From: Bacteroidota bacterium
Lineage (GTDB): Bacteria; Bacteroidota; Ignavibacteria; UBA10030; SZUA-254
Assembly (NCBI GenBank): GCA_036522515.1
Contig: DATDFQ010000024.1
Coordinates: forward strand, 43,173 to 107,172
DNA length: 64,000 nt
Direction of reading: 5' to 3'
Each line of letters starts with the position of its first letter. The first letter of the stretch is position 1. The notes below the pieces were generated by a model, which saw only the letters and a program-made list of their open reading frames with translations, did not search any database and was not told where the DNA came from. Made by a program: the position numbers and the translations under genes. Positions 6,516-59,060 of this stretch are shown here, in pieces.

Positions 6516-6552
6516 AGTAGAAAGATCCCGACCTAAAACATGTCGGGATGAC
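6516..6552. repeat. family-C hairpin repeat (CCCGAC-loop-GTCGGG + ATGACGAG tail)
   Basis: aagatcccgacctaaaacatgtcgggatgacgag. The same unit recurs at 9016, 13060, 34473 (inverted), 55566 (inverted) and 58972, and with compensatory stem variants at 34546, 48371 and 55613. Confidence 0.8.
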
Positions 6553-6563
6553 GAGCAGCTAGA

Positions 6564-7007: not shown

Positions 7008-7200
7008 GGAGATCCTTCGGTCGCTCCGCTCCCTCAGGATGACAGAAAAGAACGCAAGCTGAAGCTTGCGGCTACCGATTCGTCGAGGGCACGTCGAAAA
7101 ACGCAAGCTGAAGCTTGCGGCTACCGAGTCCTTGAGGGCAGAACCAAGAACGCAAGCTAAAGCTTGCGGCTACCGAGCCGGCGAGGGCAGAGCGAGGGAC
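7008..7200. repeat. composite repeat block: one D-family element (…ctcaggatgaca) followed by three tandem ~57-bp units each carrying an A-family hairpin GCAAGCTnAAGCTTGC + GGCTACCGA
   Basis: gcaagctgaagcttgcggctaccga at 7054, 7102 and 7152. The inter-hairpin segments are themselves similar (…gagggca…aac), so this is a tandem duplication rather than a spacer array. Confidence 0.8.
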
Positions 7201-9009: not shown

Positions 9010-9125
9010 AGAATTAAGATCCCGACCAAAAACATGTCGGGATGACGAGCGGCAAAAAGGTCTCGACCAGAAGCATGTCGGGATGATGAGGATGGAGATC
9101 CTTCGCTGCGCTCAGGATGACAATC
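9010..9125. repeat. two C-family hairpins plus one D-family hairpin in the nuoD-nuoE intergenic spacer
   Basis: agatcccgaccaaaaacatgtcgggatgacgag; ggtctcgaccagaagcatgtcgggatgatgag; gatccttcgctgcgctcaggatgacaa. The ORFs at 8975..9271 and 8982..9296 lie on these repeats and are not real genes. Confidence 0.75.
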
Positions 9126-11829: not shown

Positions 11830-12005
11830 GCAAGCGGCGCGCAGCGCCGCAAGCAGGTTGGGACGCGGAGCGTCCCGGTATGCGTTCCCACGCAGAGCGT
11901 GGGAACGAGGAGATTGGTTGGAATGATTGCCGCACCGGGCCGGCAGCCGCAGCCTTCAGGCTGCGGTCTTTTCGCAACGCGACCTGAAGGTCGCGCCTAC
12001 CGACT
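11830..12005. repeat. cluster of hairpin repeats: two GC hairpins, one B-family (TTCCCACGC-AGAGC-GTGGGAA + CGAG) and two A-family hairpins (gcagccttcaggctgc, gcgacctgaaggtcgc + GCCTACCGA)
   Basis: Direct reading of 11834-11850, 11860-11876, 11881-11909, 11946-11966 and 11977-12005. The 3' end of the adjacent methyltransferase ORF runs into this block. Confidence 0.75.
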
Positions 12006-12889: not shown

Positions 12890-13100
12890 GGCCGGCACCT
12901 GCCGGACTGAAAGAACGCAGGCTAAAGCCTGCGCCTACCGAGTCCGAGAGATCGGTAGGTGCGACCTTCAGGTCGCGTGCAGCTTGACGCAGGCTAAAGC
13001 CTGCGGCTACCGAGTCCGAGACATTATTCGTTCCCGCGCAGAGCGGCGGAACGAGAATAAAGATCCCGACCTAAAACATGTCGGGATGACGAGACGAGAT
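12890..13100. repeat. composite hairpin-repeat junkyard (A, A-inverted, A, B and C families in series)
   Basis: gcaggctaaagcctgcgcctaccga; tcggtaggtgcgaccttcaggtcgcg; gcaggctaaagcctgcggctaccga; ttcccgcgcagagcggcggaacgag; agatcccgacctaaaacatgtcgggatgacgag. The ORF at 12885..13127 is an artefact of these repeats. Confidence 0.8.
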
Positions 13101-22082: not shown

Positions 22083-22084
22083 TT

Positions 22085-22170
22085 GTCATCCTGAGGGAGC
22101 GTAGCGACCGAAGGATCCCGTTCGTTCGGCCGGGAAGATCCTTCGCTTCGCTCAGGATGACAAGGGAGGC
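22085..22170. repeat. D-family inverted pair (GTCATCCTGAG...GAAGGATC / GATCCTTCGCTTCGCTCAGGATGAC); the 'VILSEAKDL'-type element
   Basis: gtcatcctgagggagcgtagcgaccgaaggatc ... gatccttcgcttcgctcaggatgacaa. The ORF at 22015..22209 (…VILSEAKDL…) is its translation artefact. Confidence 0.8.
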
Positions 22171-22171
22171 A

Positions 22172-22549
22172 TCAGGATGACATTGTCGACTTCCACACCC
22201 CGTACGCAATCCAGATCCAGCCTCCGAGAAAGCAGAGACCTCCGAACGGGGTGATGATTCCCAGCGACCTGCTTCCCGTCACGCTCATCGCGTAGAGGCT
22301 CCCCGAGAAAAGAATAATCCCCGCCACGAAGAGCCATCCCGCCGCGTCCATATTCGATCCCGGGAACTGCGAACCCACCCATGCGACGACGAAGAGGGCG
22401 AGCGAGTGATAGAGGTGGTAGCGGACTCCCACTTCGAAGACGGCGAGCATATCGGCGGGAAGCTTCTCCTTGAGCGCGTGCGCGGCAAACGCCCCGAGCG
22501 CCACCGCGAGGAAGGCGGACAACGACCCGAGGATGAGGAAGGTTTTCAT
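22172..22549 (-). CDS. DUF423 (YgdD-like) small membrane protein
   Basis: MKTFLILGSLSAFLAVALGAFAAH...HLYHSLALFVVAWV... four TM helices. ATG at 22549 with GGAGG upstream. 4-nt overlap with the queF stop. Confidence 0.7.
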   Translation of the reverse strand: MKTFLILGSLSAFLAVALGAFAAHALKEKLPADMLAVFEVGVRYHLYHSLALFVVAWVGSQFPGSNMDAAGWLFVAGIILFSGSLYAMSVTGSRSLGIITPFGGLCFLGGWIWIAYGVWKSTMSS

Positions 22550-24456: not shown

Positions 24457-24879
24457 CTATGGGGTCTTTTTCTCCCCCTCGTTCTTGTCGTCATCGTCCT
24501 TCAAGCCCTCGCCGACTCTATGGGCCACCTTTTTTGTTTTTTTCCAACCCTTCTTGGCAGCTTTCTCCGTCCACTTCGCGCCTTTCTTGACGCCTTTTTT
24601 CCCTTCATGGTACGCCGACTTCGCCCCCTCCTTCGTTTTCTCCCAGCCCTTCTCAGTTCCCTCCACGCCCTTGTTGGTTACTTCCTTTGTCTTCTCCCAA
24701 CCCTCCTTTGTTCCCTCCTTCGTTTTCTGCCACCCTTCCTTTGTCCCCTCCTTTCCCTTCTCCAATGCTCTGGCGGCTTTTGCCACGGCCGTGTCCTGCT
24801 TCGATTGGCTCATGCCGAATGCCGGAGTCAGATAGAGGAAGACTGCCAGCCCGATGAGATAGCTTGATTGCTTGATCAT
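24457..24879 (-). CDS. small secreted Lys/Glu-rich protein made of ~7 tandem 11-residue KTKEG-type repeats (alpha-synuclein / LEA / apolipoprotein-like amphipathic 11-mers)
   Basis: Signal peptide MIKQSSYLIGLAVFLYLTPAFG with AGGAGA SD 7 nt upstream. Then TKEGWQKTKEG|TKEGWEKTKEV|TNKGVEGTEKG|WEKTKEGAKSA|YHEGKKGVKKG|AKWTEKAAKKG|WKKTKK. The plus-strand ORFs 24317..24835 and 24418..24867 are artefacts of the repeat. Confidence 0.55.
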   Translation of the reverse strand: MIKQSSYLIGLAVFLYLTPAFGMSQSKQDTAVAKAARALEKGKEGTKEGWQKTKEGTKEGWEKTKEVTNKGVEGTEKGWEKTKEGAKSAYHEGKKGVKKGAKWTEKAAKKGWKKTKKVAHRVGEGLKDDDDKNEGEKKTP

Positions 24880-24941
24880 GTGCGCTTCTCCTTTCTGTCG
24901 GTAATGGTGATTGAGTTGAAACAGAGATTGCATTGCGTACC

Positions 24942-25757
24942 TCAATTGATAATTATTCTCAGCGTGAGCGGATACGGGGAAGACAACCCGATGCGGCTCT
25001 CCTGCTGTTCATGAAGGTCGACCACCCATGTCGCGACGAAAAATCCGACCGCCGCGCCGAGGAGATTGTCGGACACCCAGTGCTGGTCCTGATAGATCCT
25101 GGAGACCGGAGTGAGGACGGCGGGCAGATAGACCAGAATCTTCAGCCAGAGCGGATGAACGTTCCTTGAAATGACGGTCGAGAGCGTGAATGCGACTGTG
25201 GCGTGCCCGCTTGAAAGCGAATGATAGTCGTCGTCAGAAATCGAGAAGGGATGATAGCTCCCGGCGCCCTCGCCGGTGTACGGTCTCGCCCTTCCGAACG
25301 CAAACTTCATCGTGTAGGTGATTGCCGCGGCATAGAGGGAGGCCTGGCCGATCTCATAGCCGATTTTTCGCGTCCCGATGTCGTCTTCGACCAGAGAATG
25401 GATTGCAAAACCCGTGAAGAGCGCGATCGGCATGTAGACCTCGCCCCAGACTCTGCCGGCCTCGATCGGAGCGCTGTTGTAATATCTCTGATCTCTCAGA
25501 ACCCCGTCGCGGATGGGTTGGTCCGCCGCCATTGCGAGAATCGTCGCGGCGCCCGTCAATCCGAATTTGAGCCAGTCCGTTCCCTTCCAGCGAAGAGGCT
25601 GCGTGAAGAAGATCTGCGATTCGGCGCCGAACTGGGGAAAGTCGTACTTGTTCTGAGCATGGAGGGCCGATTGACAGGCAACCACGATGGAGACCGTCAA
25701 CCAGAACTTGCGCCGGAAGGATCGGGAGCGGGGCTTCGAGGACGAGGCGACAATCAT
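24942..25757 (-). CDS. PAP2-family (type 2 phosphatidic acid phosphatase-like) membrane phosphatase
   Basis: KFAFGRARPY / LSSGHAT / VSRIYQDQHWVSD correspond to the three PAP2 signature motifs (KxxxxxxRP, SGH, SRxxxxxHxxxD). Start overlaps the upstream stop (ATGA). Confidence 0.8.
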   Translation of the reverse strand: MIVASSSKPRSRSFRRKFWLTVSIVVACQSALHAQNKYDFPQFGAESQIFFTQPLRWKGTDWLKFGLTGAATILAMAADQPIRDGVLRDQRYYNSAPIEAGRVWGEVYMPIALFTGFAIHSLVEDDIGTRKIGYEIGQASLYAAAITYTMKFAFGRARPYTGEGAGSYHPFSISDDDYHSLSSGHATVAFTLSTVISRNVHPLWLKILVYLPAVLTPVSRIYQDQHWVSDNLLGAAVGFFVATWVVDLHEQQESRIGLSSPYPLTLRIIIN

Positions 25758-32380: not shown

Positions 32381-32409
32381 GTCGGTAGCCGCAGCCTTCA
32401 GGCTGCGCT
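32381..32409. repeat. A-family hairpin (inverted orientation: TCGGTAGCC + gcagccttcaggctgc)
   Basis: tcgtcggtagccgcagccttcaggctgcg, overlapping the stop of the DUF309 gene. Confidence 0.7.
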
Positions 32410-34377: not shown

Positions 34378-34472
34378 CGCATTTTTCCGCCGCCTCCCTC
34401 CTGCAATATAAATCTAAATCGGAGGATGTCAAATCAGGATCAACTCCACAACTCCCGGACTTTTATCTCCGC

Positions 34473-34575
34473 CCGTCATCCCGACATGTTTCAGGTCGGG
34501 ATCTTTCTATCTTGTTCCCACACAGAGCACCGAAACGAGGGATAAGATGCTGACCTGAAGCATGTCAGCATGACG
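34473..34575. repeat. C-family hairpin (inverted), degenerate B-family copy, and C-family stem variant (GCTGAC/GTCAGC)
   Basis: tcatcccgacatgtttcaggtcgggatctttc; ttcccacacagagcaccgaaacgagg; gctgacctgaagcatgtcagcatgacgag. The compensatory CCCGAC to GCTGAC / GTCGGG to GTCAGC change keeps the hairpin. Confidence 0.75.
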
Positions 34576-34589
34576 AGCTGGATAGCGCA

Positions 34590-36700: not shown

Positions 36701-37080
36701 AGAGGAAGAGCCCGCAGCCTAAAGGCTGCGGCTACCAAAAGAATGCAGCAGAGGCACCGGTAGCCGCAAGCTTTAGCTTGCGGGCTTTCTTGTCGGCGCA
36801 GAGCGCCGACGTATGCGTTCCCACGCAGAGCGTGGGAACGAGGAAAGAGAAAGGTCCAGAGGTATCGGTAGCCGCAAGCTTTAGCTTGCGTGAAACGTAA
36901 CGCAGCCTAAAGGCTGCGGCTACCAAGAGAAAGGTCCAGAGGTATCGGTAGCCGCAAGCTTTAGCTTGCGGGCTTTCTTGTCGGCGCAGAGCGCCGACAT
37001 ACGCGTTCCCACGCAGAGCGTGGGAACGAGGAAACGGTAGGGGCATCGGTAGGCGCAAGCTTCAGCTTGCGCTCTTCAAG
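36700..37080. repeat. largest hairpin-repeat junkyard: about 8 A-family hairpins (both orientations), 2 B-family units and 2 GTCGGCGC-AGAG-CGCCGAC hairpins, including an internal ~160-bp duplication
   Basis: cccgcagcctaaaggctgcggctacc...ggtagccgcaagctttagcttgcg...gtcggcgcagagcgccgac(g/a)tatgcgttcccacgcagagcgtgggaacgagg... repeated twice. The ORFs 36688..36900 and 36732..37058 are artefacts. Confidence 0.85.
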
Positions 37081-37108
37081 ACTCGAACGCCGCTCGAGGT
37101 GGCCCCTC

Positions 37109-39278: not shown

Positions 39279-39463
39279 GGGAGGGCAAAATACGAAAAAG
39301 GCCGCTCGTAATCCACATCGGCAGAAAAAAGCAGGCACCCCAGGTTGCTGCTAAACTTCTCTTTCCGGTGACAAAGGTATTTCGAGCGGAGCTTACACCA
39401 TCTGATTTTAGCCGGATCCTTTGTTTGCCCCGTTTTGTGCCGGAGCCGCGGTTGTTCCATAGA

Positions 39464-39492
39464 TTGACATTGTATATATAATGTCATATATT
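39464..39492 (+). promoter_or_regulatory. brnTA promoter with embedded palindromic operator: TTGACA-17-TATATT; palindrome TGACAT-N10-ATGTCA fills the spacer
   Basis: ttgacattgtatatataatgtcatatatt. -35 at 39464-39469, -10 at 39487-39492. The GTG start of brnT at 39498 falls at the predicted +1, which gives a leaderless or near-leaderless transcript. Confidence 0.5.
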
Positions 39493-39497
39493 CAATC

Positions 39498-39767
39498 GTG
39501 GACTTTCTGTGGGACGAAGATAAGAACAAGAAGCTCAAAAAAGAGCGAGGTATTTCGTTTGAAGAAGTCGCCGATCTCATCATTCGGAAGCAATACGTTA
39601 AGATCGTCAAACACAACAAGCGTCCGCGACAGTGGATTTTTCTGATCCCTATTCGCGGATACATTCATGCCGTTCCGTTTGTACTAGACGATGAAAACAA
39701 TATCGTACTCAAGACAATATTTCCAAGCCGAGATTTCCATCGACAATACGGAGAGCAAGCCCCATGA
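39498..39767 (+). CDS. brnT: BrnT-family (DUF497) type II toxin
   Basis: MDFLWDEDKNKKLKKERGISFEEVADLI... matches the BrnT signature (FEWDENKN..N..KHGVSFEEA). 4-nt overlap with the downstream antitoxin. Local AT-richer composition. Confidence 0.75.
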   Translation: MDFLWDEDKNKKLKKERGISFEEVADLIIRKQYVKIVKHNKRPRQWIFLIPIRGYIHAVPFVLDDENNIVLKTIFPSRDFHRQYGEQAP

Positions 39768-40078
39768 AGCTAAAACTTGACAAGGGAGAGAGGAAAATCG
39801 AGTCTTCCGCCAAAGACTATCGCCCCATTTCGAGAAAGGAACTCGCGAAGCTGGAAGGTGTTTTGGAAAGGATCCGAAAAACGCGGAATGTAAACATCCG
39901 AATCTCGGAGATGGTTCTTGAAGAACTGAAGAAACGCTCCCGTGAGGAAGGTATTCCGTATCAAACCCTGATTTCCAGCATTCTACATAAGTTCGTGACA
40001 AATCGGCTCGTTGATGAGAAGGCCCTCCGGAGATCGATCCAACTTCTCACAGAACGGCGAAAGAAAGCTGTCGTTTGA
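39764..40078 (+). CDS. brnA: BrnA-family antitoxin (ribbon-helix-helix)
   Basis: ...NIRISEMVLEELKKRSREEGIPYQTLISSILHKFV... matches the BrnA C-terminal pattern (LP..LLE.LK..A...GIPYQ.LI...L...V). Confidence 0.7.
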   Translation: MKLKLDKGERKIESSAKDYRPISRKELAKLEGVLERIRKTRNVNIRISEMVLEELKKRSREEGIPYQTLISSILHKFVTNRLVDEKALRRSIQLLTERRKKAVV

Positions 40079-40204
40079 GGCCGAAAGGCGATGGCATCTT
40101 ACAGGGCAAAACATAAAAAAGACCGGGCGTATTCCACATCCGGCAATAACAAACGCCCCCAGGGATAGATCCGACGCCCAATAGAACAACCCGTGCGGGG
40201 TATC

Positions 40205-41626
40205 CTATTTTAGAAGAATCATTTTCCTGATACCGCTATAGAGAAGCCTGCTTCCATCGAGGTTCTCCGCCCGGATCCGGTAAAAATAGACTCCGGACGA
40301 AACCCTCGAACCGTCGAACTCCACCTCGTTCGCGCCCTGATCGAAATGTTCTTTTGAAGCGAGGGTGGCAACCTTCACGCCCAGGATGTCATAAATGTCG
40401 ATTGTTACCAGCGCTTCGTCCGCGAGTTCAAATTCGATCGTCGTCAGAGGATTGAATGGGTTTGGGAAATTCTGTCCGAGCGCGAAGCGATCGGGTTCAT
40501 CGACGCCAAGTTCAGATCCCGCCCGATGCAGAACGGGGGGCGATGCGGAAGCATTGGGGTGTAGAAATAAGGGAAGCGGACTTCTACCCGCGATTCGAAG
40601 GGGTTGAAATGAAGTCGCAGTATAGGGTCCGTTGAAGGCGTTATTGATGCGGCTGATGACAGAGTCGACATGACCATAGAAGGACGGGTCGAAGTTCGAA
40701 CAATAGGTCAGCGCCGAATCCGCCAGATGGGCAATCTGGCGAACGGTCAGATTGTTAAACGCTTCACCCGGATTACCGGGGTCGGAGTAGATCAGGTCAC
40801 CCAGCCGCGTGGCAGGGGTGTCGGGTTCAGTCATCCCGTAATCGTTCGCGATGACCGCAAGCTTAAGGGCATGCAGGTCTCCAAGGAGGAGATTGTTGTG
40901 TTTCGGTACATGTGGATTCCTCAACTGGCCGACGAACGGCTTCACTCCCCCCAAACCGGTGACGATTTCATCGAGACAACGGGGAGTTGCGCTGTGTGGA
41001 AAGAACCTCCTGTCCGCATTTACATATCTGATCCATCCCCGCACCCGGGCGCTGTCGTGATCTCTTTGCTCGAGGCCAAGGATGAGGCCATCCGGCCTTG
41101 TGATGATCCTTTTATAGAGATAGTCGCGCACGTTTCCGGCATTGGGCCGAATATAGGTGTCAAGTATTCCATCAGCATGCATTCCGGCGTTGACGGGGCC
41201 GATCCGGCTTAACGGTGCGTTCTGCCAGTCGCTGTCCGGAATTCCTCCAAGCCACCACCACCATTCAACGGTCGTGTATTTCATAATGCTGTTGTGAATG
41301 AGCAGATAAAACGCGACAGAACTATCCGGGAGAATCGGGTCGGAGAGCGTTATCAGATCGAGACTGTCATTCCAGGGAATGCGTAAATGCATGTCGTGGG
41401 CGACGTCGAACGCCAGTGGCACCCTGGAGAAGTGAACATGAAGGCCCCAGACCGTGTCGGTCCGGGTATTGTGGAAGATAAAGCGGAGATATCTATTCCC
41501 AACTCTGCCCGCCTTCGTCTCCTTGGGGAGACTGAGCTCCGCCTGGTCGAAGGTGCGATAGTTCGGTTGCGCCTGGAGTAGAACGGAAAAGAGAATGGTG
41601 GACAACAGAGTGGATGTACGTTTCAC
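40205..41626 (-). CDS. secreted protein with T9SS C-terminal sorting domain; N-terminal region of unknown function
   Basis: Signal peptide MKRTSTLLSTILFSVLLQAQ. C-terminus LGQNFPNPFNPLTTIEFELADEALVTIDIYDILGVKVATL...GVYFYRIRAENLDGS (Por_Secre_tail). Confidence 0.75.
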   Translation of the reverse strand: MKRTSTLLSTILFSVLLQAQPNYRTFDQAELSLPKETKAGRVGNRYLRFIFHNTRTDTVWGLHVHFSRVPLAFDVAHDMHLRIPWNDSLDLITLSDPILPDSSVAFYLLIHNSIMKYTTVEWWWWLGGIPDSDWQNAPLSRIGPVNAGMHADGILDTYIRPNAGNVRDYLYKRIITRPDGLILGLEQRDHDSARVRGWIRYVNADRRFFPHSATPRCLDEIVTGLGGVKPFVGQLRNPHVPKHNNLLLGDLHALKLAVIANDYGMTEPDTPATRLGDLIYSDPGNPGEAFNNLTVRQIAHLADSALTYCSNFDPSFYGHVDSVISRINNAFNGPYTATSFQPLRIAGRSPLPLFLHPNASASPPVLHRAGSELGVDEPDRFALGQNFPNPFNPLTTIEFELADEALVTIDIYDILGVKVATLASKEHFDQGANEVEFDGSRVSSGVYFYRIRAENLDGSRLLYSGIRKMILLK

Positions 41627-42040
41627 ATTATGCTTCCTTTCCTCCTGGAACTTCCCCCCAGATCAGTGGCGCCTCCCCATCGGCCGGTACAAGCAGGCAC
41701 CCTATTAGTAGGAATAATTCTCGCTAAAGTCAACGGGATTATGAAGCTACGGACTGGCTGGCGACATCGAATGCCGATTGAGCCCTCCCCGCAATATGCA
41801 CCCAATCAGGGATCCCCAACCGCCAGGCAGATTGATATGGGATCCAACCTCTGACTTCTTGTCAAACCGAAAAAGCGTCCAAGTTCTTCTAAATTGTGCC
41901 AATAGTATTAAATTCCTTTAACGGAAAGAAGATGCTTTGACTTTCTGTCAGTTTCTTGGTATCTTTCTCCCCAGACTGGGTTGACAAGTGGTTTTTACCC
42001 CCGAATCGGACCGTTGCTCCGAGCCTAATTCCAAAGCCCG

Positions 42041-48352: not shown

Positions 48353-48370
48353 AACCCATGAGGGAGATCC

Positions 48371-48400
48371 CGGCCAAAAGCGCGCCGGGATGACGTTGAA
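48371..48400. repeat. C-family hairpin with compensatory stem variant (CCCGGC / GCCGGG) just downstream of rpsT
   Basis: atcccggccaaaagcgcgccgggatgacg; same loop position and ATGACG tail as the other C-family copies. Confidence 0.6.
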
Positions 48401-48404
48401 ACCG

Positions 48405-48659
48405 TTACTTCAGGGTGGAGACGAACTTGGTGAGCCGGGACTTCTTGTTGGAGGCGTTGTTGCGGTGGATGAGACCCTTCGCCGCGAGCTGATCGAGGAG
48501 CTTCACAACCTGCTTTAAAGCTGCCGCTGCCTTGTCCTTTTCCTTCGATTGACGCACCCGTTTGATCGCTGTCTTCATTTTGGACGCGTATGCCCTGTTC
48601 CGGTCGCGGTGCTTCAATGCCTTGCGTGCCTGCCTGATTGCGGATAAATGTTTGGCCAT
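48405..48659 (-). CDS. rpsT: 30S ribosomal protein S20
   Basis: MAKHLSAIRQARKALKHRDRNRAYASKMKTAIKRV... full-length S20 similarity. AGGAGAGA SD. Confidence 0.9.
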   Translation of the reverse strand: MAKHLSAIRQARKALKHRDRNRAYASKMKTAIKRVRQSKEKDKAAAALKQVVKLLDQLAAKGLIHRNNASNKKSRLTKFVSTLK

Positions 48660-48702: not shown

Positions 48703-48730
48703 TATAGCTAAAATTTCGGAGAGGAGCAAT
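48703..48730 (-). promoter_or_regulatory. putative sigma70-type promoter for rpsT (TTGCTC-16/17-TATATT)
   Basis: Minus-strand reading gives gaTTGCTCctctccgaaattttagcTATATTgaagg, about 40 nt upstream of the rpsT ATG. Confidence 0.3.
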
Positions 48731-48736
48731 CAGAAA

Positions 48737-48856
48737 CGTAGGGTCTCACTTACAAGAGACATGTCATCCTGAGCGGAACAAAGTGGAGCGAAGGATCTCC
48801 ACACGACAATCTGTGAGATCCTTCGCTTCGCTCAGGATGACAAAGTGAGACCCTAC
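48737..48856. mobile_element. 120-bp MITE-like perfect palindromic element (D-family core) with 14-bp terminal inverted repeats GTAGGGTCTCACTT / AAGTGAGACCCTAC
   Basis: gtagggtctcacttacaagagacatgtcatcctgagcg...gagcgaaggatctc [loop cacacgacaatctgt] gagatccttcgcttcgctcaggatgacaaagtgagaccctac. Nearly every base of the left arm pairs with the right arm. Confidence 0.7.
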
Positions 48857-48858
48857 TT

Positions 48859-49719
48859 TCAAAAGAGCGTATAACTCAGCCCAATCGCAATAGCCTCTTT
48901 GACCTGAGTCCGGGGGCTCACTCGCTGCTCATTGATCAACTGGAGGCCGAAGATGGCGGTCACGTACTTGTTCACCTTCCCCGTGATTCCTGTCGTGCTC
49001 CGTACCACGACCACATCGAGGTGCTTGAACGGATCGAAGAGCTCCAGTTGGGTCGTAAAGAGTATGTTCTCCGCGAGCTGGAATTCTATGTTCGTGACTG
49101 ACTCCAATCCGCCGTCCACGGTGTTCTTCTCGATCTCGGTCGTCGCCGGATCATCCGTGTATTGATTGAAGTTACTCGTAATCACTTCGCGCAGGCCAAC
49201 CCCGAGCCGCGTCCGGAATTGCTTGGAGGGCTCGTACCCCACGCCCGCGCTCTGAAGCAGATAGGCGGGATCGAAGAAATTAGAGACCTCGGTGCTCGTC
49301 CCGTCCGACTTGTAAGCATACCCCTTTGCGAACTGCGACTTGAAGCTCGCAGCAGCATACGGATTGAGATACTTATCGATCTTGTAGGTAAACACGGTGG
49401 AAAGATCGATGATGTCGTCGGTTTTCCTCAAACCCTGGTCGCCAAGCCGCGTCTGTCCGAACGCAAACTTGTAAAGCGTCGTCCAGTTGGTGCCCAGCTC
49501 GTCGTCTTCCGCCTTCCCATCGGCCGAGAGGGAGTAGGAGAGGGCGTTTTCACCCCCCTGCGCCCAATCCGTAAATGCGATTTGCGTAAGAGTCAGGCCG
49601 GCCACGAGGCTGTTCTTCATTCCGTAGACCGGAGGAGGCGGGGCTGGCGTCGAGTCGGGTGCCTGCGCGCAAAGCGTGCCCGCCCAGAGGATCAATACCC
49701 CAAGCGCTAGTCTCTTCAT
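48859..49719 (-). CDS. DUF3078-family outer-membrane beta-barrel protein
   Basis: Signal peptide. LTQIAFTDWAQGGENALSYSL motif characteristic of DUF3078. C-terminal ...IGLSYTLF. Confidence 0.75.
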   Translation of the reverse strand: MKRLALGVLILWAGTLCAQAPDSTPAPPPPVYGMKNSLVAGLTLTQIAFTDWAQGGENALSYSLSADGKAEDDELGTNWTTLYKFAFGQTRLGDQGLRKTDDIIDLSTVFTYKIDKYLNPYAAASFKSQFAKGYAYKSDGTSTEVSNFFDPAYLLQSAGVGYEPSKQFRTRLGVGLREVITSNFNQYTDDPATTEIEKNTVDGGLESVTNIEFQLAENILFTTQLELFDPFKHLDVVVVRSTTGITGKVNKYVTAIFGLQLINEQRVSPRTQVKEAIAIGLSYTLF

Positions 49720-50145: not shown

Positions 50146-50153
50146 CCCATTGT

Positions 50154-50240
50154 CGTCCGTTAGGGGTGTCCCGCAAAAAAGGGACTGAGAACATACCCTG
50201 GAAACCTGATCTGGATCATGCCAGCGTAGGGAAACGGAAG
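50154..50240 (+). promoter_or_regulatory. TPP (thiamine pyrophosphate, THI-box) riboswitch
   Basis: gtccgttaGGGGTGtCCcgcaaaaaagggaCTGAGAacatACCCtgGAAACCTGATCTGGATCATGCCAGCGtAGGGAaacggaa contains all conserved THI-element blocks (GGGGUGCC, CUGAGA, ACCC, AACCUGAUCUGGAUAAUGCCAGCG, AGGGA) with P1 tccgtt/aacgga. Confidence 0.85.
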
Positions 50241-50252
50241 GGAAATTGCTCA

Positions 50253-50301
50253 GCGCCGTTTTTCCCTCCATTTTCCGGAGGGGAAAACGGCGTTGTCATT
50301 T
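50253..50301 (+). terminator. riboswitch expression-platform terminator (attenuator)
   Basis: gcgccgtttttccctcc-attttcc-ggaggggaaaacggcg is a perfect 16-bp stem followed by ttgtcattt, 20 nt before the TonB-receptor ATG. Confidence 0.55.
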
Positions 50302-50320
50302 AATCGGAAAGAACCCATCG

Positions 50321-52597
50321 ATGAAGTACCTCACACTTGTTTTGTCATTAGGAGCCCTTGCCCCGCCTCTCCCGGCGCAGGACACGCTTCTTGTGACCCG
50401 AGATTCCGTCTACTCATATCTCCCCGCAGTCATTGTGACCGCGACGCAGGCCCGGGAACGGGAGACTCCTGTGACATTCTCAACCTTGACGCAGGCTCAA
50501 CTGTCAGAACGCTATTCCGTGCAAGATATCCCCGTTCTCCTTTCAGATCTCCCTTCCATGACGTTCTATTCCGAAAACGGGAACGGGATCGGCTATAACT
50601 ACGTGAACCTCCGGGGATTCGACCAGCGCCGCCTCTCCGTGATGATCAACGGGGTGCCGCAGAACGACCCTGAGGATCATAATGTATATTGGATTGATTT
50701 CCCGGATCTCCTTGGAAGCACCGGTAGCGTGCAGGTGCAGCGCGGGGCCGGAAGCGCCTTCTACGGACCGCCGGCCATCGGCGGATCGATCAACCTGGTC
50801 ACGGATCCCTTCAACAGAAAGCCGGGGATCACGGTCGAGTCGGAACTCGGCTTCCAGGAGTTCTCGGACAGCACGACGTCTCTTCCGATCGCGACGCGCA
50901 AATACGCCGTGTCCGTGAATTCAGGACTCGTCGGGAAACAATACATGGTGTATGGACGGCTTGGAAGAATCCAAAGCGACGGGTACCGCACCAACTCGTG
51001 GGTGAACCTCGATTCCTATTTTCTCGGAGCCATCAGGATCGACAGGGAGATGACGACCCGCCTTGAGTTTTATGGCGGGCCACTGACCGACGGCCTCGCG
51101 TACACCGGCCTCCCGAAGTTCGTCAACGACAACCCCCGGCTTCGACGGCAGAATCTCGCCGATTGGGGGCTCGACTCGACCGGTTCGGGATACTCCTATG
51201 CGACGCAGAGAAGGCCGCAGGAAAGCGAGAGTTTTTCACAGCCCCACTATGAATTGATCCACGACTGGCGTCTCTCTCCCGGGACAACGCTCCATAACAC
51301 GCTCTTTTACTATACCGGGGACGGTTACTTCGACTACGACGCGTCGTGGGCCGACACATCGTTGCTTCGGATCGGATCATTGTACGGGTTTCCGACGGCC
51401 CAGAACCCGGCGAACGCCCTTGTCCGCGCGTTCGTGGGAAATAAGCAGTGGGGATGGCTTCCGAATATCGGGATCGATCATACTTCCGGGACATTGACCC
51501 TTGGGGCCGAGGTCCGCATTCATCGCTCCACACACTGGGGCAAGATCCAGTACGCGGAGGGCCTTCCGCCGAATTTCGACCCCGACTATCACTTTTATGA
51601 ATATAACGGAGAGAAGGACATCCTCTCGGTTTTCGGGCACGAGCTCTATCGGCCGCAGGAGAATCTCACGCTGATGTTCGATCTTCAGCTGGTCCGCAAC
51701 CGGTATGGAATCAGCAACGAAAAGTATCTGGGCGAAAACTTCAGCCTCCCCTACTTCTTCGCGAACCCGCGCGTCGGAGCAAATTACAATCTCAACCCTG
51801 AATGGAACGGATATCTGTCGCTCGCCTATACCTCGCGTGAACCGGTCTTGCGAAACCTCTACGCGGTAGAGGATTCCTATTTCGGGGCCACGCCCCAGTT
51901 CGAGGCCGACACGTCAGGCGGCACGGTGAGATATGATTTCACGAAGCCGCTCGCAAAGCCCGAGCGGTTGCTCGACATCGAAGCGGGAGCAGTGTACAGA
52001 GGGGCGAACGCGGAGTTCTCGGCCGATGTGTTCTGGATGGAGTTCAGCGATGAGCTTGTCAAAAGCGGCCAGGTGGACATCTTCGGCCAGCCCGTCACCG
52101 GCAATGCAGATCGGACGCGTCATATTGGGGTGGAGCTCGACGGAAGACTCTCAGCAGGCCCCATGTTCTCAATCAGCGGAAATCTTACGCTCTCTCACAA
52201 TCGGCTCATCCGGTACAGCGTGATCGACGACGCAGGAATCATCCAGCAGGGCGCGCGGGTCGATCTCGACGGCAATTCCATCGCGGGATTTCCCGACGTA
52301 CTCGGGAATCTCCGGGCCACCTTTAGGAGTGACGACGGGGAAGTCTCCTTTTCGGCAAAATACGTGGGGCCATTCTATACTGATAACTTCAAGATTGAGG
52401 ATCACAGAAATGACGCGTATACCCTCATCGACGCCGAAGCGCTCGATCGGATCGCCACCATAGGCGGGGTGGAGCTCTCTCTCCGATTCGAGATACACAA
52501 CGTGTTCAACAGATTCTTTTCCCTGAGCGGGGAAGGGAACGCCTTCTTCCCGGCAGCGGAACGAAGCTATCTCTGGGGGATGAAGGTCGATCTGTGA
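50321..52597 (+). CDS. TonB-dependent outer-membrane receptor (thiamine-regulated)
   Basis: Signal peptide MKYLTLVLSLGALAPPLPAQ. TonB-box-like DTLLVT. Plug domain (NYVNLRGFDQRRLSVMINGVPQNDPE...). C-terminal beta-barrel ending in an aromatic residue. Start at MKY (ATG 50321). Confidence 0.85.
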   Translation: MKYLTLVLSLGALAPPLPAQDTLLVTRDSVYSYLPAVIVTATQARERETPVTFSTLTQAQLSERYSVQDIPVLLSDLPSMTFYSENGNGIGYNYVNLRGFDQRRLSVMINGVPQNDPEDHNVYWIDFPDLLGSTGSVQVQRGAGSAFYGPPAIGGSINLVTDPFNRKPGITVESELGFQEFSDSTTSLPIATRKYAVSVNSGLVGKQYMVYGRLGRIQSDGYRTNSWVNLDSYFLGAIRIDREMTTRLEFYGGPLTDGLAYTGLPKFVNDNPRLRRQNLADWGLDSTGSGYSYATQRRPQESESFSQPHYELIHDWRLSPGTTLHNTLFYYTGDGYFDYDASWADTSLLRIGSLYGFPTAQNPANALVRAFVGNKQWGWLPNIGIDHTSGTLTLGAEVRIHRSTHWGKIQYAEGLPPNFDPDYHFYEYNGEKDILSVFGHELYRPQENLTLMFDLQLVRNRYGISNEKYLGENFSLPYFFANPRVGANYNLNPEWNGYLSLAYTSREPVLRNLYAVEDSYFGATPQFEADTSGGTVRYDFTKPLAKPERLLDIEAGAVYRGANAEFSADVFWMEFSDELVKSGQVDIFGQPVTGNADRTRHIGVELDGRLSAGPMFSISGNLTLSHNRLIRYSVIDDAGIIQQGARVDLDGNSIAGFPDVLGNLRATFRSDDGEVSFSAKYVGPFYTDNFKIEDHRNDAYTLIDAEALDRIATIGGVELSLRFEIHNVFNRFFSLSGEGNAFFPAAERSYLWGMKVDL

Positions 52598-53274
52598 CCC
52601 TCAGAAATCGTCCCACGAGAAAGCGCTACGCCCCGTCGGCTTTGCTCCACGCTCTGATTATCGCCAACGGCACCCTCCCTCCTGCCCCGATGGTCCGGCG
52701 GCTGCGCCAACGTGCAGACCTTGTCGTTTGCGCCGATGGCGGAGCAAACCGGGCGCGGAGCGCGGGGATAACGCCCGACATCATACTCGGCGATATGGAC
52801 TCACTTACCGCCGCGACGAAGCGCTTCTATCGAGGTGTTCCACTTTTTAGGATCCCCGATCAGGAGAGCACCGACCTGGAGAAGGCGATCCTCTTCTGTA
52901 TCACGCTGGGGACGGCTTCAGTCGATGTTCTGGGTGCGCTTGGAGATCGGATCGATCACATCACCGGAAGCCTGGGCTGCTTCAAAAGGTTTGGAGAAAG
53001 GATAGAGCTTCGCCTCATAGATGAGATCGGCGAGCTAACCCGCATCCGAAAGAGAGTGAGCTTGAAAACAAGAAAGGGGGAGAAAATTTCCCTCATTCCC
53101 GTGGACCGGTGTGCCGGCGTTACGACGAAGAATCTTAAATACCCGTTGAAGAACGCATTCCTGGAAACCGGCGTTCGCGAAGGAATCAGCAACGAGGCGA
53201 CCGGCCGATCGGCATCGGTTTCGGTTGCGAAAGGGACTCTGCTTCTGTTCAGGTTTTGGGATGAGAGCCGGTAG
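52594..53274 (+). CDS. thiN: thiamine pyrophosphokinase
   Basis: ALIIANGTLPP...ADLVVCADGGANRARSAGITPDIILGDMDS matches the TPK catalytic N-domain. 4-nt overlap with the receptor gene. Confidence 0.8.
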   Translation: MTLRNRPTRKRYAPSALLHALIIANGTLPPAPMVRRLRQRADLVVCADGGANRARSAGITPDIILGDMDSLTAATKRFYRGVPLFRIPDQESTDLEKAILFCITLGTASVDVLGALGDRIDHITGSLGCFKRFGERIELRLIDEIGELTRIRKRVSLKTRKGEKISLIPVDRCAGVTTKNLKYPLKNAFLETGVREGISNEATGRSASVSVAKGTLLLFRFWDESR

Positions 53275-53295: not shown

Positions 53296-54744
53296 ATGAT
53301 TCATCTCGCCCTTTCAGACGTCATCGTCATCCTCCTTTACTTCGGAGGCGTCCTGTTCGTCGGTTTTCGGTCCGCCCGGAGAACGGCGGATTCCGAGGAA
53401 GATTTCCTGCTGGCAGGCCGTTCACTCACCCTCCCCATCTTCGTGATGACGCTCGTTTCCACCTGGTACGGCGGCATTCTTGGCGTCGGAGAATTCTCCT
53501 ACCGGTACGGAGTGTCAAATTGGGTGGTTCAGGGGGTCCCCTACTACATCTTCGCAGCGATCTTTGCGTTTATCCTCGCGAAGAAAATCCGGGCGACAAA
53601 CCTCTTCTCGATCCCGGATAAACTTGCCGCCTCGTACGACCGGAAGACCGCCGTTCTCGGTTCGGTGCTGACTTTCGTTCTCATGACGCCGGCCCCCTAT
53701 ATCCTGATGCTCGCCGTATTCATCCAGATGCTGTTCGGGTGGAGCCTGGTGGTGAGCCTCCTTGTCACCGCTATTGTCGCGGTTTCGTACCTTTTCGCCG
53801 GGGGATTCCGGGCGGATGTTGAAACCGACGTCCTCGAATTCTTCCTGATGTTCATCGGCTTCGCGGTCATCCTTCCATATTGCGGCATCCGGTTCGGCGG
53901 CTGGGAGTACCTCCAGTCGCACCTCCCGCCGTTACACCTGACGTGGCACGGAGGAAACTCGATCCAGTACATCCTGGTCTGGTTTTTCATCGCGCTCTGG
54001 ACGCTTGTCGACCCGGCGTTCCACCAGCGGTGCTATGCCGCAAAAAGCGGGGATGTCGCCCAAAGAGGCATTCTCATATCAATCGCGTTCTGGTTTCTGT
54101 TCGATTTCATGACAGCAACGGCGGGACTCTACGCCAGGGCCTCACTCCCCGCTCTGCAGGAACCGATGATGGCGTATCCGATGCTCGCCGAAGAGGTCCT
54201 CCCCCCGATCGCAAAAGGACTCTTCTACGTGGGGATGCTCGCGACGATCATGTCGACGCTGAATACGCTCGCGTTCGTGTCCGCGCAGACGCTGGGGAGA
54301 GATATCCTGTTACGAATGGGATTCGGCGGGGGGATGAGAAACGGTGCCGAACCCGTGGGCCTCGAAGGGTCGAGTCTCTCGAAGCGATACACGCAGATGG
54401 GCCTCATCCTGGCATTCGTCGTTTCGGTGGCCATCGCACTCGCGATACCGAGCGTGATCAAGATCTGGTATACGATCGGCACGGTTATCATCCCGGGTCT
54501 CCTGGTGCCCCTGATCGCGAGCTATTTCGAATCGTTGAAGATATCCGCCCGGTATGCGTTTCTTGCGATGGCGGCAGGATGGCTCACGTCGCTCGTGTGG
54601 CTGATTGCCGGGTTGGGTGAGAGTTCGGGAAAATATCCTCTCGGAATCGAGCCGATGTATCCCGGGTTGGCATTGAGCGTTGGGATATGGGGGGTGGGAA
54701 GGGCGAGCATGGTAAGGACGGCCGGGCGAAAGAACGCGGCCTGA
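53296..54744 (+). CDS. sodium:solute symporter (SSS) family transporter; candidate thiamine/precursor permease (ThiV-like) by context
   Basis: 482 aa with about 13 TM helices. ...FLLAGRSLTLPIFVMTLVSTWYGGILGVGEFSY... SSS signature. Last codons run into the repeat block. Confidence 0.75.
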   Translation: MIHLALSDVIVILLYFGGVLFVGFRSARRTADSEEDFLLAGRSLTLPIFVMTLVSTWYGGILGVGEFSYRYGVSNWVVQGVPYYIFAAIFAFILAKKIRATNLFSIPDKLAASYDRKTAVLGSVLTFVLMTPAPYILMLAVFIQMLFGWSLVVSLLVTAIVAVSYLFAGGFRADVETDVLEFFLMFIGFAVILPYCGIRFGGWEYLQSHLPPLHLTWHGGNSIQYILVWFFIALWTLVDPAFHQRCYAAKSGDVAQRGILISIAFWFLFDFMTATAGLYARASLPALQEPMMAYPMLAEEVLPPIAKGLFYVGMLATIMSTLNTLAFVSAQTLGRDILLRMGFGGGMRNGAEPVGLEGSSLSKRYTQMGLILAFVVSVAIALAIPSVIKIWYTIGTVIIPGLLVPLIASYFESLKISARYAFLAMAAGWLTSLVWLIAGLGESSGKYPLGIEPMYPGLALSVGIWGVGRASMVRTAGRKNAA

Positions 54745-54860
54745 AGGCCGCGCCTACCGACTATCAAGGTTTCGGCGCGGAGCGCCGATGTATGCGTTCC
54801 CACGCAGAGCGTGGGAACGAGAAGGCCTGAAGGCCGCGGCTACCTGCCGCGGCCCCAGCC
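54735..54860. repeat. A - GC-hairpin - B - A composite repeat
   Basis: gcggcctgaaggccgcgcctaccga; ggcgcggagcgccg; tgcgttcccacgcagagcgtgggaacgag; ggcctgaaggccgcggctacc. Confidence 0.8.
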
Positions 54861-54875
54861 AGTCTTGCGTAGTGG

Positions 54876-55478
54876 TTACTTTTTCGTATCCTTCTTCGCG
54901 TCCTTCTCTGCAGCCTGCTCTGCCGCGGTCCAGGGAGGGACCACTTTGTTCATCCTGGCATACGCAATCGATTGACCCAGGTGTTCATGCAGGTGAAGCG
55001 CGGCTTCGAAGATCACCCCCCGGTAGGTCGCGTCATCGCCGAACATCTTCGTCGCCTTGTCAAGATCCGAATCGGGCGTCTGGAGCACGGCGGTGCGAAG
55101 ATGGTTAAAGGACACCTTGAGAGCCTGTATCACCTTCGCCTTTTCCGTCACATTCTTCTCCAGGTTCTTTTCCAGTCCTTCCGGCTTCTTGACACCGATG
55201 AACGTCGGAAAGAGATAATTGGCACCGGCGATATGCATATAGACTTCGCTGACCGACCGGACACCCTCCATCGGCCTCCAGGAGTAGGAATTCTCGGGCA
55301 TGGCCCCGGCCAGTTCTTCGATCTTCTTCTCCACATCGTTTAACTGGCCAATGAACTCTCCCCGGAATCCTGTGGGGGCGGGAGGTTTTTCGATCGGATC
55401 TTTCTGCTGCGCCCGGACCGGCTGCATGAGCAGGAAGGCGACCGTGAGGACGGCAATCAGAGCGTGGATTGTTTTCAT
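54876..55478 (-). CDS. secreted DinB-superfamily (DinB_2-like) four-helix-bundle protein
   Basis: Signal peptide MKTIHALIAVLTVAFLLMQPVRAQ. H..xxxxxxxH..H pattern (YMHIAGANYLF...ALHLHEHLGQSIAY) typical of DinB/YfiT metal-binding helices. Confidence 0.6.
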   Translation of the reverse strand: MKTIHALIAVLTVAFLLMQPVRAQQKDPIEKPPAPTGFRGEFIGQLNDVEKKIEELAGAMPENSYSWRPMEGVRSVSEVYMHIAGANYLFPTFIGVKKPEGLEKNLEKNVTEKAKVIQALKVSFNHLRTAVLQTPDSDLDKATKMFGDDATYRGVIFEAALHLHEHLGQSIAYARMNKVVPPWTAAEQAAEKDAKKDTKK

Positions 55479-55565
55479 GTTGATTCTCCTTTGGTTGATG
55501 TAATGTAGTGAACTAACAATTAGCATGACGGGATAATGAATAGCCTCGGCCTATTACCTCTGCTC

Positions 55566-55645
55566 GTCATCCCGACATGTTTTAGGTCGGGATCTTTCTA
55601 AAAGATTTTCAAGATGCTGACCTGAAGCATGTCAGGATGACGAGA
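55566..55645. repeat. C-family hairpin (inverted) plus C-family stem variant GCTGAC/GTCAGG
   Basis: ctcgtcatcccgacatgttttaggtcgggatctttc ... gatgctgacctgaagcatgtcaggatgacgag. Confidence 0.75.
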
Positions 55646-55689
55646 TGGAAAGAAAGATGGCAAACTGAGACACGACCGACGAAACAGAC

Positions 55690-58791: not shown

Positions 58792-58839
58792 CGACTAAAA
58801 GTACGGATTTTTACGATCAAAAGTGTGTCATTCTGAGGA

Positions 58840-59060
58840 GCGGAGCGACGAAGAATCTGTTTTTTTTCATATCTCAGGCGATGAGATCCTTCGCTTCACT
58901 CAGGATGACAATGAGGTGCTCAGGATGACAATTCGGCGTTAGGTCTCGTTCCCACGCTCTGCGTGGGAACGAGGAAGATCCCGACCAGAAACATGTCGGG
59001 ATGACGAGCAAAAAATATCGGGATGACGAGCAAAAAGAAATGCCGGGATGACGGGGAGAG
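58840..59060. repeat. D, D-tail, B, C and two C-tail fragments in series
   Basis: gatccttcgcttcactcaggatgacaa; gctcaggatgacaattcgg; ctcgttcccacgctctgcgtgggaacgagg; agatcccgaccagaaacatgtcgggatgacgagc; atatcgggatgacgagc; aatgccgggatgacgggg. The ORF at 58874..59077 (…VILSEAKDL…) is an artefact. Confidence 0.8.

Follow-up and report, generated by a model that had tools for sequence, protein, structure and literature searches.

A strain-specific hairpin doublet inserted between a DUF3078 gene and rpsT in an uncultured Bacteroidota bacterium, and the repeat families that surround it

The window analysed here is a stretch of 64 kb from contig DATDFQ010000024.1 of a Bacteroidota bacterium of the Ignavibacteria (assembly GCA_036522515.1, positions 43,173 to 107,172), and its subject is a short palindromic element at 48738-48856. 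Coordinates follow the numbering of the window unless they are prefixed with a locus label (L002, L006 etc.). Read on the minus strand, the element begins directly (0 nt) after the TGA stop codon of a gene for a DUF3078 outer-membrane-type protein (48859-49719) and ends 70 nt before the start of rpsT, which encodes ribosomal protein S20 (48405-48659). A preliminary description, made from the letters of the window, had proposed a perfectly palindromic miniature inverted-repeat transposable element (MITE) of 120 bp. The element is real, although it measures 119 bp between the outer ends of its terminal inverted repeats (TIRs). It is short and non-coding (119-129 bp): all six frames are interrupted or meaningless, frame -2 reading the VILSEAKDL peptide after which the core had been named. 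The 41-aa translation shared words with only two database proteins, neither of which scored, and an all-against-all phmmer comparison of the VILSEAKDL frame matched only two unrelated repeat proteins. Spurious open reading frames (ORFs) had been attributed to such elements, but the four public assemblies examined have no gene annotated across this copy.

Comparison of alleles shows that a block of 129 bp, which contains the element, is a derived, strain-specific and recent insertion. The same locus is present on ENA contig k141_1886185 (sample ERZ27262795), where the window occupies positions ~5857-69856, and exact-protein look-ups found the filled allele in independent assemblies as well, complete in L001 and L003 and, in L004, on a contig that ends inside the element. 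In a sister strain (L002, sample ERZ27262800), whose identity over 6.9 kb is 98.2-99.5%, precisely these 129 bp are missing. The block is also absent from two outgroup species, whose DUF3078 proteins are 87% and 71% identical to that of the window and in which the 70-bp spacer between DUF3078 and rpsT is intact (loci L006, L007 and L009, L006 being the species with the 87%-identical protein). Since the site is empty in both the sister strain and the two outgroup species, the empty state is ancestral and the block was inserted in the lineage of the window, whereas a deletion from an ancestrally filled site in the sister strain is ruled out. Polymorphic insertion had been named beforehand as a check on mobility, and this clean empty site, in a strain of 98-99% identity and in two outgroup species, demonstrates mobility of some kind.

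The outgroup spacer reads ...CT(C/T)TTCTGA|TTGCTC... at the junction, and the filled allele reads, on the minus strand, ...CTCTTTTGA|AAGTAGGG...CCCTACGTTTCTGA|TTGCTCC.... These junctions permit a duplication of TGA (3/3) or of TTYTGA (5/6), whose length is ambiguous because there is a single insertion. The letters can be read in three ways: as a 123-bp element flanked by a 6-bp duplication of TTCTGA, the left copy of which would later have undergone a synonymous C>T change; as a 3-bp duplication of TGA; or with no duplication, in which case the TTCTGA at the right end would be part of the element.

The element is bounded by two exact, inverted copies of the 14-bp repeat GTAGGGTCTCACTT, as had been described. 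This sequence occurs exactly twice in the 64-kb window, where the chance expectation is 0.15 even with two mismatches allowed, and it gives the element GTAG at its start and CTAC at its end. Between the TIRs stand two copies of a short hairpin, here called the D unit, arranged as an inverted pair with their heads outwards (heads-out). The palindrome is not perfect, since the two arms differ by two asymmetric loops of ~10 nt: ten extra bases of the left arm are unpaired, and the loop of the left D unit has 13 nt, as against GAA in the right one. Folding of a 136-nt region gives a single long hairpin for both strands, whether they are treated as DNA or as RNA (z ~ -12), and the energy as RNA is ~-77 kcal/mol.

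The consensus of the D hairpin is GTC-ATYCT-GA-GC-GNA-GC-GA-AGRAT-C. We gathered 116 distinct short units by a mismatch-tolerant scan that was blind to pairing. The stem pairs positions 4-8 (ATYCT) with 20-24 (AGRAT) and continues into tandem G·A pairs (G9·A19 and A10·G18, each kept in 115 of the 116 units), while G11-C17 and C12-G16 close a G13-N14-A15 loop in which N14 is free (C in 43 units, A in 41, G in 21 and T in 11); the T-G-T-C at the 5' side and the C at the 3' side are near-invariant and unpaired. Across the alignment 98.8% of the cells pair, and at five of the seven pairs both partners vary (one of them, for example, occurs as C-G, T-A and G-C). Doubly changed cells number 31, compared with 2.6 in shuffles; the observed values are reached in none of 500 shuffles, and slid controls collapse. 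The D unit is thereby shown to be under structural constraint as a hairpin, its 5' (T)GTC being single-stranded and invariant. Long variants carry a second small hairpin in the loop, such as GGCGC-TCT-GCGCC or GGTC-GCAA-GACC. A hammerhead-like core was rejected by inspection, CUGAG-CG being incompatible with CUGANGA.

Nearest-neighbour folding of a single D unit returned the expected structure with no unusual stability (-2.7 kcal/mol, z = -0.3). As these energies rate the unit as weak, the structural claim rests on the covariation and on published data for the d(GCGNAGC) mini-hairpin, a hyper-stable DNA structure with two G-C pairs and a sheared G·A pair, which forms with any N and melts at 70-76 °C (PMC13037366). 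GCGNAGC is also the exact apex of the canonical D unit, where every base occurs at N (C 36, A 32, G 14 and T 7) and closure is likewise through two G-C pairs and a G·A pair. The mini-hairpin is a structural motif and not a genetic element, and its known natural sites are replication or priming origins and promoters, not dispersed repeats.

The preliminary description had reported that the core recurs in the window, and the 25-mer core indeed has four matches at up to three mismatches, against 0.00 expected. In total the window holds eight full D units (plus truncated heads) and ten units of a related family, C, all outside called genes except for overlaps with stop codons; the heptamer GTCATCC occurs 31 times on the two strands, mostly in intergenic positions. 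Neighbouring D units form 30 heads-out pairs (the focal element included), 5 heads-in pairs and 2 direct pairs, so that the heads-out doublet is the dominant higher-order form. Its two units are separated by spacers of 4-75 nt, and in 17 of the 30 cases one unit is of the ATCCT and the other of the ATTCT subtype. The core at 58878, which had been taken for a single copy, belongs to such an inverted doublet and is accompanied by a truncated head. One to three truncated heads, with a period of 20-22 nt, stand before many D units, and some units have orphan tails behind them. In five cases a D unit lies 0-8 nt after a stop codon, and the stop codon of a DUF423 gene (22172-22174) is the TGA inside a truncated D head (GTCATCC-TGA, 22172-22181), where the repeat now forms the end of the reading frame. 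The window strain has a second D doublet that the sister strain lacks, ~4 kb past the end of the window (L013:5362-5469). A block of another family, B, shows the reverse pattern between the two strains, with boundaries too ragged to define.

Arrays of truncated heads (GTCATCCTGAGC plus ~8 nt, with the 20-22-nt period) also precede a complete D unit in unrelated genomes (Table 1), and orphan tails follow some units there, for example GTAGCGAAGAATC in L023. Together, head arrays and orphan tails suggest self-targeted nested insertion or hairpin slippage. Two public contigs, L004 (ending at 3898) and L011 (ending at 2173), stop inside or right after D elements.

The D core is not confined to this genome. 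With N14 left free, the 25-nt core is found exactly in 64 IMG/VR stretches and, with up to three changes, in a metagenome-assembled genome (MAG) of Bryocella (Acidobacteriota); again with up to three changes, it forms part of a heads-out doublet in a record that bears the label of a Phocaeicola massiliensis plasmid (Bacteroidota). Plasmids of Planktothrix agardhii (Cyanobacteriota) carry more diverged D-type units in alternating ATTCT/ATCCT arrays. Cultured phage genomes gave no match to the core, and full-text literature searches with the core sequence or its peptides returned nothing relevant.

Family C has the form CTC-GTC-ATCCCGAC-loop-GTCGGGAT-C-TT and its 5' GTC, ATCC/GGAT foot and 3' C are also those of D. 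The GGATGAC tail that had been noticed in both families is thus confirmed and is accompanied by a common GATCC head, the shared foot being GTC-ATCC...GGAT-C, from which it is reasonable to suppose that one recognition system could serve both. Compensatory changes had been claimed for three C stems; they are complete in those beginning at 34544 and 48364 (Table 1) and only partial in the third, which keeps one mismatch. Apart from the window strain, the closely related L006 is the one source in which family C was seen; the IMG/VR and other-phylum loci had no copy. The L006 spacer after rpsT, which is orthologous to the window spacer at 48364-48397, contains a run of six C-like units (L006:11194-11450), four of them at a period of 39 bp, against one in the window.

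Two further palindrome families, A and B, occupy spacers of the window. Family A folds as DNA with -16 kcal/mol (z = -8.7) and has its AGA loop on the plus strand in six of seven copies. Family B stems vary with full compensation (CGCAGCCT/AGGCTGCG, CGCGGCCT/AGGCCGCG, CGCGACCT/AGGTCGCG and CGCAGGCT/AGCCTGCG), and its units are arranged in heads-out and heads-in doublets and in one tandem triplet of 49-bp period at 7052-7190. Family B satisfies the published definition of a repetitive extragenic palindromic (REP) sequence, a 5' GT[AG]G tetranucleotide followed by a palindrome (PMC3686654), which makes a system of the type of the REP-associated tyrosine transposases (RAYTs) plausible in this genome. 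Orthologous spacers can hold different families: an A/B cluster of ~400 bp (36703-37105) corresponds to a single D unit at L006:20345-20397, another A/B cluster (54711-54877) to D units at L006:2955-3135, and the C doublet at 55547-55656 to a long D unit in L006. This indicates a fast turnover of the repeats, in which the same permissive spacers are colonised independently and repeatedly.

The repeats also show a strand bias. All eight single C and D units of the window (at six loci) lie on the minus strand, three further single-unit loci in syntenic L006 lie on the equivalent strand, and in doublets with one short unit the short unit is on that same strand in four of four. The two-sided sign probability is ~0.004 when the nine single-unit loci are taken as independent. 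Such a bias points to a strand-specific process, either a replication-linked insertion of single-stranded DNA (ssDNA) or selection in transcripts.

The outer TIRs, by contrast with the D unit, proved to be a property of one copy. No second TIR-bounded copy was found in the window, in the 5.9 kb upstream and ~10 kb downstream of it (~80 kb of genome reached) or in the related loci fetched. Among 185,579 GTDB representative genomes the TIR joined to a D head had one match only, in the Bryocella MAG, which is compatible with chance because D heads are so numerous; the same query gave no match in JGI metagenome contigs or IMG/VR, and a pair of TIRs 80-110 nt apart gave none in the JGI contigs. A short GTAG-hairpin version of the TIR matched only four unrelated phage hairpins, three of which are terminator-like with a T run. 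One diverged relative of the TIR, on one side only, precedes a further D head at L086:5476-5497 (GGAGGGTCTTATTTT-GTCATCC), a position 360 bp before the window begins. In 26 other D doublets, taken from many genomes, the sequences that border the doublet on the outside are no more complementary than chance or random sequence would give, which makes the 14-bp TIR peculiar to the focal copy and not a trait of the family. The family-level entities are the D unit and the D doublet, not the TIR-bounded element. From the MITE interpretation of the preliminary description the mobility stands, while a family of MITEs sharing these TIRs is not supported by the ~80 kb reached and the collection scans.

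Table 1 Coordinates of the focal insertion and of the repeat families
Feature	Position	Strand	Remarks
Inserted block	48730-48858		129 bp; in window strain, absent from empty-site alleles (alignments; BLAST blocks against L002 break at 48735/48859)
TTCTGA, one copy of possible target-site duplication	48730-48735	-	identical to ancestral empty site
TTTTGA, other copy	48859-48864	-	holds DUF3078 TGA stop; one synonymous difference from TTCTGA of empty alleles
Left TIR, GTAGGGTCTCACTT	48738-48751	+	perfect 14 bp; 16-17 bp including one mismatched position (48736-48751 = 16 bp)
Right TIR	48843-48856	-	exact reverse complement of left TIR, 14/14
Ten extra left-arm bases, ACAAGAGACA	48752-48761	+	left arm only; unpaired in fold, interrupts palindrome
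Left D unit, large-loop variant	48763-48796	+	GTC-ATCCT-GA-GC-(13-nt loop)-GC-GA-AGGAT
Spacer (21 nt) between tails of the two D units	48797-48817		apical part of long hairpin
Right D unit, canonical short form, TTGTCATCCTGAGCGAAGCGAAGGATCTC	48815-48843	-	0 mismatches to family consensus
C-like hairpin, stem ATCCCGGC/GCCGGGAT	48364-48397	-	just past rpsT stop codon; compensated stem
C-family heads-out doublet	55563-55644	.	unit at 55611-55644 partly compensated, one mismatch
Second C-family heads-out doublet	34472-34577		A-family hairpin in spacer; compensated stem at 34544-34577
D doublet, then truncated head	22083-22181	.	long unit + / short unit -, 21-nt spacer
D doublet and one truncated head	58827-58929		T-type long unit + / C-type short unit -; doublet itself 58827-58911
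Single D unit, long variant	7009-7045	-	4 nt after stop codon
Two C units and one single D unit	9016-9123	-	all inside nuo operon
Family A, 29-nt perfect palindrome, CTCGTTCCCACGC-AGA-GCGTGGGAACGAG	11884-11912; 13030-13058; 34514-34542; 36817-36845; 37005-37033; 54796-54824; 58948-58976
Family B, GGTAG-(C/G)-CGCAAGCT-TYA-AGCTTGCG	7052-7190; 11941-12005; 12915-13024; 32383-32407; 36716-37071; 54734-54845		also noted as GGTAG-C-CGCAAGCT-TC-AGCTTGCG
Truncated-head arrays	L045:12013-12076; L041:986-1040; L066:5798-5850; L078:4560-4602; L006:3066-3132; window 58886-58929

In kind, the focal block is a known bacterial miniature hairpin repeat, of the type of REPs, of REPINs (inverted REP doublets) or of MITEs. 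How it moved is less certain, and the reading that we favour, tentatively, is that of a REPIN-like non-autonomous hairpin element, built of inverted doublets and moved in trans by an HUH/Y1 enzyme acting on ssDNA. The element is an inverted heads-out D doublet with an extra outer inverted repeat of 14-16 bp beginning GTAG, and its insertion at the DUF3078 stop codon, directly upstream of rpsT, is recent. In this reading it would have travelled as ssDNA, its hairpin foot (GTC-ATCC...GGAT-C, common with family C) being recognised and cut by an HUH/Y1-type enzyme, RAYT-like or IS200/IS605-like, encoded elsewhere in the genome. The apparent 6-bp duplication might then be the cleavage and target motif of this enzyme, present both in the target and at the end of the element. 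Its persistence after insertion is probably due to the tolerance of sites just past stop codons, where it may serve as an RNA hairpin at the 3' end.

Several observations are consistent with this mechanism: the polarity of the insertion, the second strain-variable D doublet, the covarying D hairpin, the heads-out doublets, the strand bias, the presence of family B and the GTAG...CTAC ends. Strand-specific insertion is an outcome of ssDNA transposition, as in IS200/IS605. Other observations weigh on the opposite side. A scan for Y1/HUH (RAYT/IS200) motifs in the six-frame ORFs of the window and of every fetched locus (~800 kb of D-bearing sequence) found none, and Pfam searches of eight ORFs between heads-out pairs and of ten window genes beside repeat clusters revealed no transposase or nickase. 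The D unit carries TGTC and not the REP-defining GT[AG]G, and its core is near-identical across several phyla, whereas REPs are specific to a species or clade. Perfect TIRs and a possible target-site duplication are hallmarks of cut-and-paste (DDE-type) MITEs, we know of no report of REPINs making duplications, and the outer TIR is unique to the focal copy. Finally, the strand bias may equally reflect transcription, as five of the six window loci are sense to the neighbouring minus-strand gene.

The main rival, which we regard as possible although on the unlikely side, is a classical MITE, that is, a deletion derivative or chance construct whose 14-16-bp TIRs are bound by the DDE transposase of some insertion sequence (IS) and which moved by cut-and-paste with a 6-bp (or 3-bp) duplication, the D doublet being a passenger. 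It accounts well for the TIRs (perfect over 14 bp, or 16 bp with one mismatch), for the absence of the whole block, TIRs included, from the empty sites, and for the observation that D doublets in general do not have the TIR; the 129-bp difference can also be read as a 123-bp element with TTYTGA at both ends, the right copy being identical to the ancestral site. Against it, only one copy is seen in the ~80 kb reached, the single GTDB match is explicable by chance, the JGI and IMG/VR scans (TIR with D head, or a TIR pair ~95 nt apart) gave none, and neither a parent IS nor its transposase was seen in the reachable sequence. The duplication is imperfect, and the 3-bp TGA reading would make the right TIR non-terminal. 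Moreover, TCTCACTTT, the inner 9 nt of the repeat, is similar to the pyrimidine-rich sequence that D units commonly have on their 5' side, and the one-sided relative at L086:5476-5497 also precedes a D head.

Two explanations dispense with a transposition mechanism of the block itself or make it secondary. In one, which we consider improbable, no transposase acted and the block is a copy of some other locus, brought in at short homologies (TTCTGA/TCCTGA-like) by recombination, gene conversion or template switching, palindromes coming and going by replication slippage. The TCCTGA held by the D head is indeed similar to the target TTCTGA, the tandem truncated heads with their 20-22-nt period are slippage-like (window 22166-22181 and 58913-58929; L006:3066-3132; L045; L041), and two other strain differences have ragged boundaries; however, the focal boundaries are base-clean, and both the recurrence of the same D unit in many unrelated genomes and contexts and the strong heads-out preference argue for an active, specific process. 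In the other, which appears to us the least probable of these explanations, the element has its main role as RNA, stabilising or terminating the 3' end of the DUF3078 mRNA or serving as an rpsT leader, and its mobility is incidental. The position 0 nt after a stop codon, the similar positions of other D units (0-8 nt after stops), the stability of the long hairpin as RNA (~-77 kcal/mol) and the sense orientation of most single units to the neighbouring gene would all suit such a role. Yet the sister strain and two related species do without the element, the C unit at 6522-6555 is antisense to both of its neighbours, there is no Rfam match to the element, and the hairpin is not followed by a T run. 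An intrinsic terminator was rejected because the tail after the hairpin, GTTTCTGATT on the minus strand or TTTCAAAAG on the plus strand, has no T/U run and the terminator scan made no call. A known RNA family was likewise rejected: the sole Rfam match in the window is a TPP riboswitch, and a permissive scan of the element returned generic miRNA hairpin models only (E ~0.5-1, far below thresholds).

The element shares features with several described systems and differs from each of them. The bacterial MITEs Correia/NEMIS, RUP and ERIC are ~100-150 bp long, with TIRs, an imperfect overall palindrome, insertion polymorphism between strains and positions near genes; they are multi-copy with the same TIRs and, where known, have a defined duplication (e.g. 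TA) and a parent IS. The focal element is like them in size, TIRs and polymorphism and differs by its single known TIR-bounded copy and by the lack of a parent IS in the reachable sequence. Miniatures derived from IS200/IS605 (PATEs) depend on hairpins, are strand-specific and insert by a short motif that recurs at the element end without a true duplication, and a motif of this kind would explain the TTYTGA at both junctions. Their left- and right-end hairpins, however, are direct on one strand and they have no TIRs, whereas the hairpins of the focal element are inverted and TIRs are present.

A REPIN is a pair of REPs in inverted orientation that folds, together with the spacer between them, into a hairpin (PMC3337134), and the likeness to REPINs mobilised by RAYTs is close: ~90-120 bp, non-coding and extragenic, with two short inverted imperfect palindromes and a variable spacer in one hairpin (Bertels & Rainey 2011; PMC3337134, PMC3116915). 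As in REPINs, singlets, doublets and mixed clusters coexist, and presence or absence varies between close strains. The differences lie in the D overhang, (T)GTC and not GT[AG]G, in the failure to find a RAYT for D in the window and fetched loci, in a core that is cross-phylum and not lineage-specific, and in the extra outer TIRs and possible target duplication of the focal copy. In addition, D doublets often mix subtypes (ATCCT/ATTCT, short/long), whereas SBW25 REPINs are reported never to be formed from different REP groups (PMC3337134, PMC3116915). The REPs and bacterial interspersed mosaic elements (BIMEs) of Enterobacteria and Pseudomonas/Stenotrophomonas are likewise imperfect palindromes of 20-40 nt with compensatory stems, intergenic, often at gene 3' ends or inside operons, and in higher-order clusters. 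Family B (GGTAG plus palindrome) fits their definition (PMC3686654) literally, whereas C and D are without GT[AG]G and start (T/C)GTC-ATCC; D follows the REP logic of a conserved 5' overhang and an imperfect palindrome (PMC3686654), but its stem has conserved tandem G·A mismatches and a GNA triloop. Considered as a REP or REPIN, the focal element thus has neither the GT[AG]G unit head nor the lineage specificity, and no cognate RAYT was found in the window and fetched loci, although such a gene, being single-copy, would most likely be situated beyond the ~80 kb of this genome that was covered; considered as a MITE, its TIRs, size and empty sites fit, and multiple copies with the same TIRs were found neither in the ~80 kb reached nor in the collection scans. 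Its general architecture of small imperfect hairpins, conserved 5' overhang, heads-out doublets, mixed clusters and strand bias fits better with REP/REPIN than with a transposase-derived MITE.

Some features of the window are unrelated to these repeats. A TPP (thiamine pyrophosphate) riboswitch (Rfam RF00059, 74 bits) at 50152-50249 lies directly upstream of genes for a TonB-dependent receptor (50246-52597) and thiamine pyrophosphokinase (52594-53274), which together look like a thiamine-uptake and salvage operon. A direct repeat of 33-bp period (24619-24792) within a minus-strand ORF (24457-24945) presumably encodes a repetitive protein segment. Relative to the sister species L006, ~2.5 kb (39301-41850, with ORFs 39684-40001 and 40205-41626) is present in the window only, and a gene for 510 aa between a TonB receptor gene and mscL (L006:8032-9564) in L006 only.

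Filled and empty alleles, defined to the base and accompanied by outgroups, are here available for a hairpin-doublet element of a soil bacterium that is uncultured and Bacteroidota/Ignavibacteria-like. Repeats of this sort disrupt short-read metagenome assemblies, and their capacity to supply or overlap stop codons is relevant to annotation. To our knowledge, REP/REPIN biology has been worked out almost wholly in Proteobacteria, where the sequences are lineage-specific. The D unit, in contrast, is one hairpin found in several phyla and in viral contigs, and its conserved features are non-Watson-Crick, namely tandem G·A pairs and a GNA triloop as in d(GCGNAGC). A further, rather unlikely proposal is that the D hairpin and its lineage-specific derivative C constitute an undescribed cross-phylum family of mobile ssDNA mini-hairpins, with a dedicated enzyme distinct from the GTAG-reading RAYTs and spread on phage or other mobile DNA. 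If this were true, the focal insertion would be a rare event caught in the act, defining both the mobile unit and its target (TTCTGA beside a stop codon). An enzyme tied to the D hairpin, if found, would widen the known range of hairpin-guided DNA transposition.

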